624 nucleotides of DNA from assembly GCF_003334385.1 (NCBI RefSeq), contig NZ_QOWN01000160.1; one strand, written 5' to 3'. Shown piece by piece: positions 174 through 624 of the stretch. Every line of letters starts with the position of its first letter. The stretch's first letter is position 1. The DNA is from Escherichia coli. GTDB taxonomy: Bacteria > Pseudomonadota > Gammaproteobacteria > Enterobacterales > Enterobacteriaceae. The translations under genes and the position numbers were made by a program. The notes below the pieces were generated by a model. That model saw only the letters and a program-made list of their open reading frames with translations, made no database searches and was not told the DNA's origin.

Positions 174-624
<451 letters not shown>

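Follow-up and report, generated by a model that had tools for sequence, protein, structure and literature searches.

The sarcin-ricin loop in a 624-nt segment of an Escherichia coli rRNA operon: an invariant loop on the covarying stem of helix 95

The DNA analysed here, referred to as the window, is a stretch of 624 nt that carries, on its minus strand, the 3' part of a 23S rRNA gene, the spacer behind it and the beginning of a 5S rRNA gene. A megablast search of complete E. coli genomes found the whole window to be 100% identical to E. coli K-12 MG1655, with no indels, and recovered matches in all 5426 of the 5426 genomes, many of them at 100% over all 624 bases. The K-12 locus identical to the window lies between purH and yjaA and has the gene order 16S, tRNA-Glu, 23S, 5S; we take this locus to be the rrnE operon (rrlE-rrfE). 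An Rfam scan of both strands matched window 624-174 on the minus strand to positions 2480-2925 of the bacterial LSU model (RF02541, LSU_rRNA_bacteria) with 484.5 bits against a gathering score of 50 (E 7.4e-158), the 5' end of the match being cut by the window edge. The 5S rRNA model (RF00001) was matched by window 78-1, likewise on the minus strand (56.6 bits, E 3.4e-11), and the two matches thus stand in the order of an LSU operon, with the 5S behind the 23S on one strand.

As the window is identical to the 2904-nt K-12 23S rRNA without indels, any 23S position is obtained as 3078 minus the window coordinate, a relation that we verified base by base against the K-12 gene. On this basis the features of the window, together with the reference gene used for numbering, are as follows:

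Window 1..80, minus strand: first 80 nt of the 5S rRNA, cut by the window edge (RF00001, K-12 annotation)
Window 81..173, minus strand: intergenic spacer of 93 nt that separates the 23S gene (annotated end at window 174) from the 5S start
Window 174..624, minus strand: 3' part of the 23S rRNA, nt 2454-2904 (RF02541 and identity to K-12 rrnE)
Window 624: start of the 23S portion, nt 2454
Window 174: 3' end of the 23S rRNA, nt 2904
Window 404..432, minus strand: helix 95 (H95) hairpin, nt 2646-2674 (Rfam structure line, model positions 2672-2700)
Window 432-426, minus strand: 5' strand of H95, CUGCUCC, nt 2646-2652
Window 411..425, minus strand: 15-nt sarcin-ricin loop (SRL), UAGUACGAGAGGACC, nt 2653-2667, unpaired in the Rfam consensus structure
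Window 424-409, minus strand: motif flagged for study, nt 2654-2669
Window 413..424, minus strand: universal 12-nt core, AGUACGAGAGGA, nt 2654-2665, exact match
Window 416..419, minus strand: GAGA (GNRA-type) tetraloop, nt 2659-2662
Window 418: A2660, the ricin depurination site
Between window 417 and 416: the G2661-A2662 bond, the alpha-sarcin cleavage site
Window 409..410, minus strand: G2669 and G2668, with which the flagged 16-mer ends, outside the universal core
Window 410-404, minus strand: 3' strand of H95, GGAGUGG, nt 2668-2674
L001 3548-6451: annotated K-12 23S gene, 2904 nt, the numbering reference

At the 5S end of the window, the RefSeq record annotates rrf/5S as 116 nt from window 78. 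The sequence UGCCUGGCGGC, which we take to be the 5' terminus of the mature 5S rRNA of 120 nt, begins at window 80, and the offset between the two starts looks like a difference in annotation trimming. A match to RAGATH-30 across the spacer and the 5S start (window 65-121, minus strand) was discarded as probably due to chance, its 20.1 bits (E 0.24) comparing with a gathering score of 59.5.

The 16-mer flagged in an earlier note on this DNA, CCGGTCCTCTCGTACT, occurs a single time in the window, at 409-424 on the plus strand; its reverse complement, which is the minus-strand reading, is AGUACGAGAGGACCGG, also given as AGTACGAGAGGACCGG. Across the K-12 23S gene and the whole 12.6-kb locus, the motif was found only at 23S nt 2654. 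In the LSU covariance-model alignment Rfam places it at the hairpin loop of H95 on the minus strand, where the earlier note had expected it, and the base-by-base numbering bore out the placement of GAGA at nt 2659-2662 (window 419-416) along with all the other coordinates given there. All 15 loop bases match the RF02541 consensus. The string C-GAGA-G is read at 2658-2663, so that a GNRA tetraloop with its C2658-G2663 closing pair is recognisable at the level of the sequence rather than of the three-dimensional fold, and the bases of the bulged-G motif (G2655, U2656 and A2665) are all present. According to the Rfam structure line the H95 stem comprises 7 pairs, including two G.U wobbles; its 3' strand is opened by G2668 and G2669, which have C2652 and C2651 as partners. 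[quoted passage not shown]

A string of 16 nt could in principle also arise by chance in DNA unrelated to rRNA, for example within a small overlapping reading frame. Two mechanically called ORFs do overlap the site (316-426 on the plus strand, 36 aa, and 356-511 on the minus strand, 51 aa), and in very large collections short strings conserved in rRNA do turn up by coincidence, as is seen from the 21 non-rRNA loci among the at least 120 matches to a 14-nt rRNA anchor (see below). However, the flagged string appeared in 0 of 200 dinucleotide-preserving shuffles of the window, the surrounding 451 nt score as LSU rRNA, and the window coincides with an annotated 23S-5S region of E. coli, all of which render a chance origin vanishingly improbable. 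The region being fully explained by rRNA, we rejected the two small ORFs as genes. It might alternatively be supposed that the window derives from a non-functional or displaced copy of an rrn 3' end, either plasmid-borne or a truncated fragment. Displaced copies exist, given that plasmids account for 45 of the 41,610 places at which E. coli assemblies matched, and the 624 nt do not reach into the wider genomic context; nevertheless, the full identity to the chromosomal K-12 rrnE copy and the intact succession of 23S, spacer and 5S make such an origin highly unlikely. The preferred reading therefore remains that of an ordinary SRL within an rRNA operon. As identity was searched among E. coli genomes, the source may also be a near-identical relative such as Shigella, with no consequence for the function. 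The earlier note had held that the motif itself makes the 23S call and its strand effectively certain: call and strand are both right, but the 484.5-bit match and the 100% identity to rrlE provide the firmer basis for them. Apart from this, we observed that rrn fragments outside the chromosome are present in assemblies labelled E. coli, and that for one record with this label the best match to the window was only 80-90% identical, representing a divergent copy.

To sample conservation, LSU genes were collected from a one-genome-per-species collection with a 14-nt anchor, CTCGATGTCGGCTC, at 23S 2499-2512; this anchor was placed outside H95 so that the sampling does not select on the motif itself. 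The search returned at least 120 anchor loci, comprising 21 chance matches in non-rRNA DNA, 6 loci cut before H95 and 93 with a readable H95. The chance matches were recognised by the missing LSU context downstream, the search range having been widened for intron-containing genes. These 21 exact matches to the anchor lie in mostly GC-rich DNA; exact rRNA 14-mers are unspecific in collections of this size, and a check of their context is needed. The 93 readable loci reduce to 72 distinct genome/sequence combinations from 71 genomes, spanning many bacterial phyla and three archaeal metagenome-assembled genomes (MAGs), and all the counts that follow refer to the matches listed, which are not a random sample of genomes. 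None of the 72 departs from the common base at nt 2655-2660 or 2662-2665, and 69 of the 72 share an identical 12-nt core (2654-2665), G2661 being not absolutely invariant. The full flagged 16-mer is identical in 50 of the 72 listed, and its last four bases differ between lineages: C2666 and C2667 are variable, while G2668 and G2669 are covarying stem bases. Only 12 nt of the 16-mer are thus universal. To call the motif perfectly conserved is accordingly right as regards the 12-nt core and the agreement with the E. coli reference; taken universally, it fails for the last four bases.

The stem was analysed with 56 distinct 32-mers from other genomes, drawn from the matches listed. We found 98.7% of cells to hold standard pairs, versus 73.9% in shuffles, and compensatory changes on both sides in 7 of the 7 pairs; the observed score was reached by 0 of 500 shuffles. 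In a control in which the 3' partner was slid by 1-3 columns, pairing amounted to 36-52%. The two pairs that include the end of the flagged 16-mer were distributed as follows:

Pair 2652-2668: CG 38, UG 10, UA 3, AU 1, GC 1, other 3
Pair 2651-2669: CG 42, UA 7, AU 3, GC 2, UG 1, other 1

The anatomy is that of an invariant loop on a covarying stem. Folding of the isolated 29-nt hairpin gave an energy no better than that of shuffled sequence (-5.9 kcal/mol, z = -0.07), and a search for DNA inverted repeats detected none. Weak signals of this kind are expected, because the non-canonical pairs of the SRL are invisible to nearest-neighbour models and the stem includes two G.U wobbles; these null results do not count against H95, for which covariation is the appropriate test.

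The window copy agrees with the SRL of E. coli 23S rRNA (H95, domain VI, nt 2653-2667) in sequence, strand, numbering, hairpin and operon context, without any difference, and its sequence is that of the solved E. coli ribosome structures (PMC4176186, PMC2896532). The SRL of eukaryotic and archaeal large-subunit rRNAs (28S or 23S) shares with E. coli both the core of 12 nt, AGUACGAGAGGA, and the GAGA tetraloop; in the archaeon Nitrososphaera (L094) the core is identical. The bases after the core read GGAAC in this archaeon and in a Hermodarchaeota MAG (L041), whereas they read GGACC in E. coli. The Hermodarchaeota MAG and a Hadesarchaea MAG (L086) carry CGGUACGAGAGGA, which corresponds to the changes U2653C and A2654G, so that archaea do vary at the first base of the 'universal' 12-mer.

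Four of the related 23S genes bear insertions of about 160-760 nt at positions where the window represents the uninterrupted allele:

E. coli 2593/2594 (window 485/484 equivalent): insertion in L032, L078 and L041
About E. coli 2604/2605 (window 474/473 equivalent): insertion in L004

In L078 the inserted sequence is identified by Rfam as a group I intron (RF00028, 52.8 bits). For CPR bacteria, insertions into rRNA have been published at sites 2593 and 2604, and site 2657, which lies inside the SRL, is listed in the same work (PMC11270868).

The departure from the core at G2661 was seen in a Planctomycetales MAG (L077, WFOE01000110.1), in which the SRL reads UAGUACGAAAGGACU with G2661A, such that GAAA replaces GAGA. 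With the anchor at 9728-9741 (minus strand), its H95 follows some 155 nt further downstream and shows C2667U and G2668U in addition; the rRNA operon is otherwise good, with an LSU match of 1821.8 bits followed by a 5S. A metagenome scan for the G2661A form of the SRL, which used the conserved upstream flank, found it in at least 120 contigs (L122-L241). These GAAA variants resemble the E. coli SRL in the hairpin, the bulged-G sequence and the GNRA class of the tetraloop, and differ in having A at 2661, where the window has the canonical G. Among the matches listed, 74 contigs have low-GC rRNA segments (<0.44), and most of these share one family of H95 stems (GACCTTC... and close variants, about 60 contigs among the matches listed). 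One contig of the low-GC group that was examined (L145) encodes a tRNA with the anticodon UCA and a nad6-like ORF, and on the strength of these two features in one contig the low-GC stem family looks mitochondrial. The other 46 contigs among the matches listed are bacteria-like and display 23 different H95 stems. When their taxon was sought by similarity to the sampled named LSU loci, the best identities were only 75-87%. We consider it somewhat probable that the G2661A tetraloop is fixed in several uncultured bacterial lineages, being neither a mitochondrial peculiarity nor a sequencing error. Even if true, this extends known variation, since the tetraloop has been treated as GNRA with R at 2661, and natural bacterial SRL variants have been mentioned (PMC4176186). 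Such fixation, if real, could entail lineage-specific changes in toxin sensitivity or in GTPase contacts.

The functional interpretation draws on two bodies of evidence: the sequence, strand, numbering, hairpin context, loop conservation and stem covariation come from the present analysis, and the three-dimensional motifs, the mechanism of GTPase activation and the toxin chemistry from the literature on the identical sequence. The universally conserved SRL has been defined as nt 2654-2665 on H95; it is depurinated at A2660 by ricin, cut at the G2661-A2662 bond by alpha-sarcin and contacted by EF-G, EF-Tu and IF2 (PMC2896532, PMC11912913). Structurally, it has been described as a distorted hairpin that combines a stem and a flexible region with a bulged-G cross-strand stack and a GNRA tetraloop (PMC6562825, PMC4176186), the latter defined as G2659-A2662 with C2658-G2663 as its closing pair (PMC4176186). 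The phosphate of A2662 helps to place a catalytic histidine and a Mg2+ ion, activating GTP hydrolysis (PMC6562825, PMC11912913), and deletion of nt 2653-2667 is dominant lethal and also harms 50S assembly (PMC11912913). The roles as a toxin target and as the contact and GTPase activation site for EF-G and EF-Tu have been documented experimentally, and for precisely this sequence of E. coli (PMC2896532, PMC11912913, PMC6562825).

In the window copy the RNA forms a 7-bp stem topped by the 15-nt loop, which, judged by these data, would be built of non-canonical pairs (the bulged-G motif) and of the GAGA tetraloop with C2658-G2663 as its closing pair. Exposed to solvent on the 50S subunit, the SRL would dock the translational GTPases EF-Tu, EF-G and IF2 by their G domain, and its A2662 phosphate would help to position the catalytic histidine and the Mg2+ ion so that GTP is hydrolysed. 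Removal of A2660 by ricin-type N-glycosidases, or a cut by alpha-sarcin between G2661 and A2662, would each leave a lesion that blocks factor function. The description of the motif as the ricin and alpha-sarcin site and as the contact for EF-G and EF-Tu finds support in the literature (PMC2896532, PMC11912913), with a refinement as regards ricin. Efficient attack by this toxin occurs mainly on eukaryotic ribosomes, through docking to the stalk P-proteins, and its dependence on these eukaryotic proteins sets the eukaryotic SRL apart (PMC6562825). In E. coli, A2660 is thus homologous to the ricin site without being a natural target of the toxin. Alpha-sarcin, for its part, is active on E. coli ribosomes, cutting them at G2661-A2662 (PMC2896532).

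Taken as a whole, the flagged SRL observation and its interpretation are correct, ordinary and already known, and there is nothing new in the window. The SRL is among the best-characterised RNA elements, and the copy in the window is the reference sequence itself and touches no open question. Its value here is that of a landmark, which fixes the identity, the strand and the E. coli numbering of the window, so that the other features of the window can be named with confidence.
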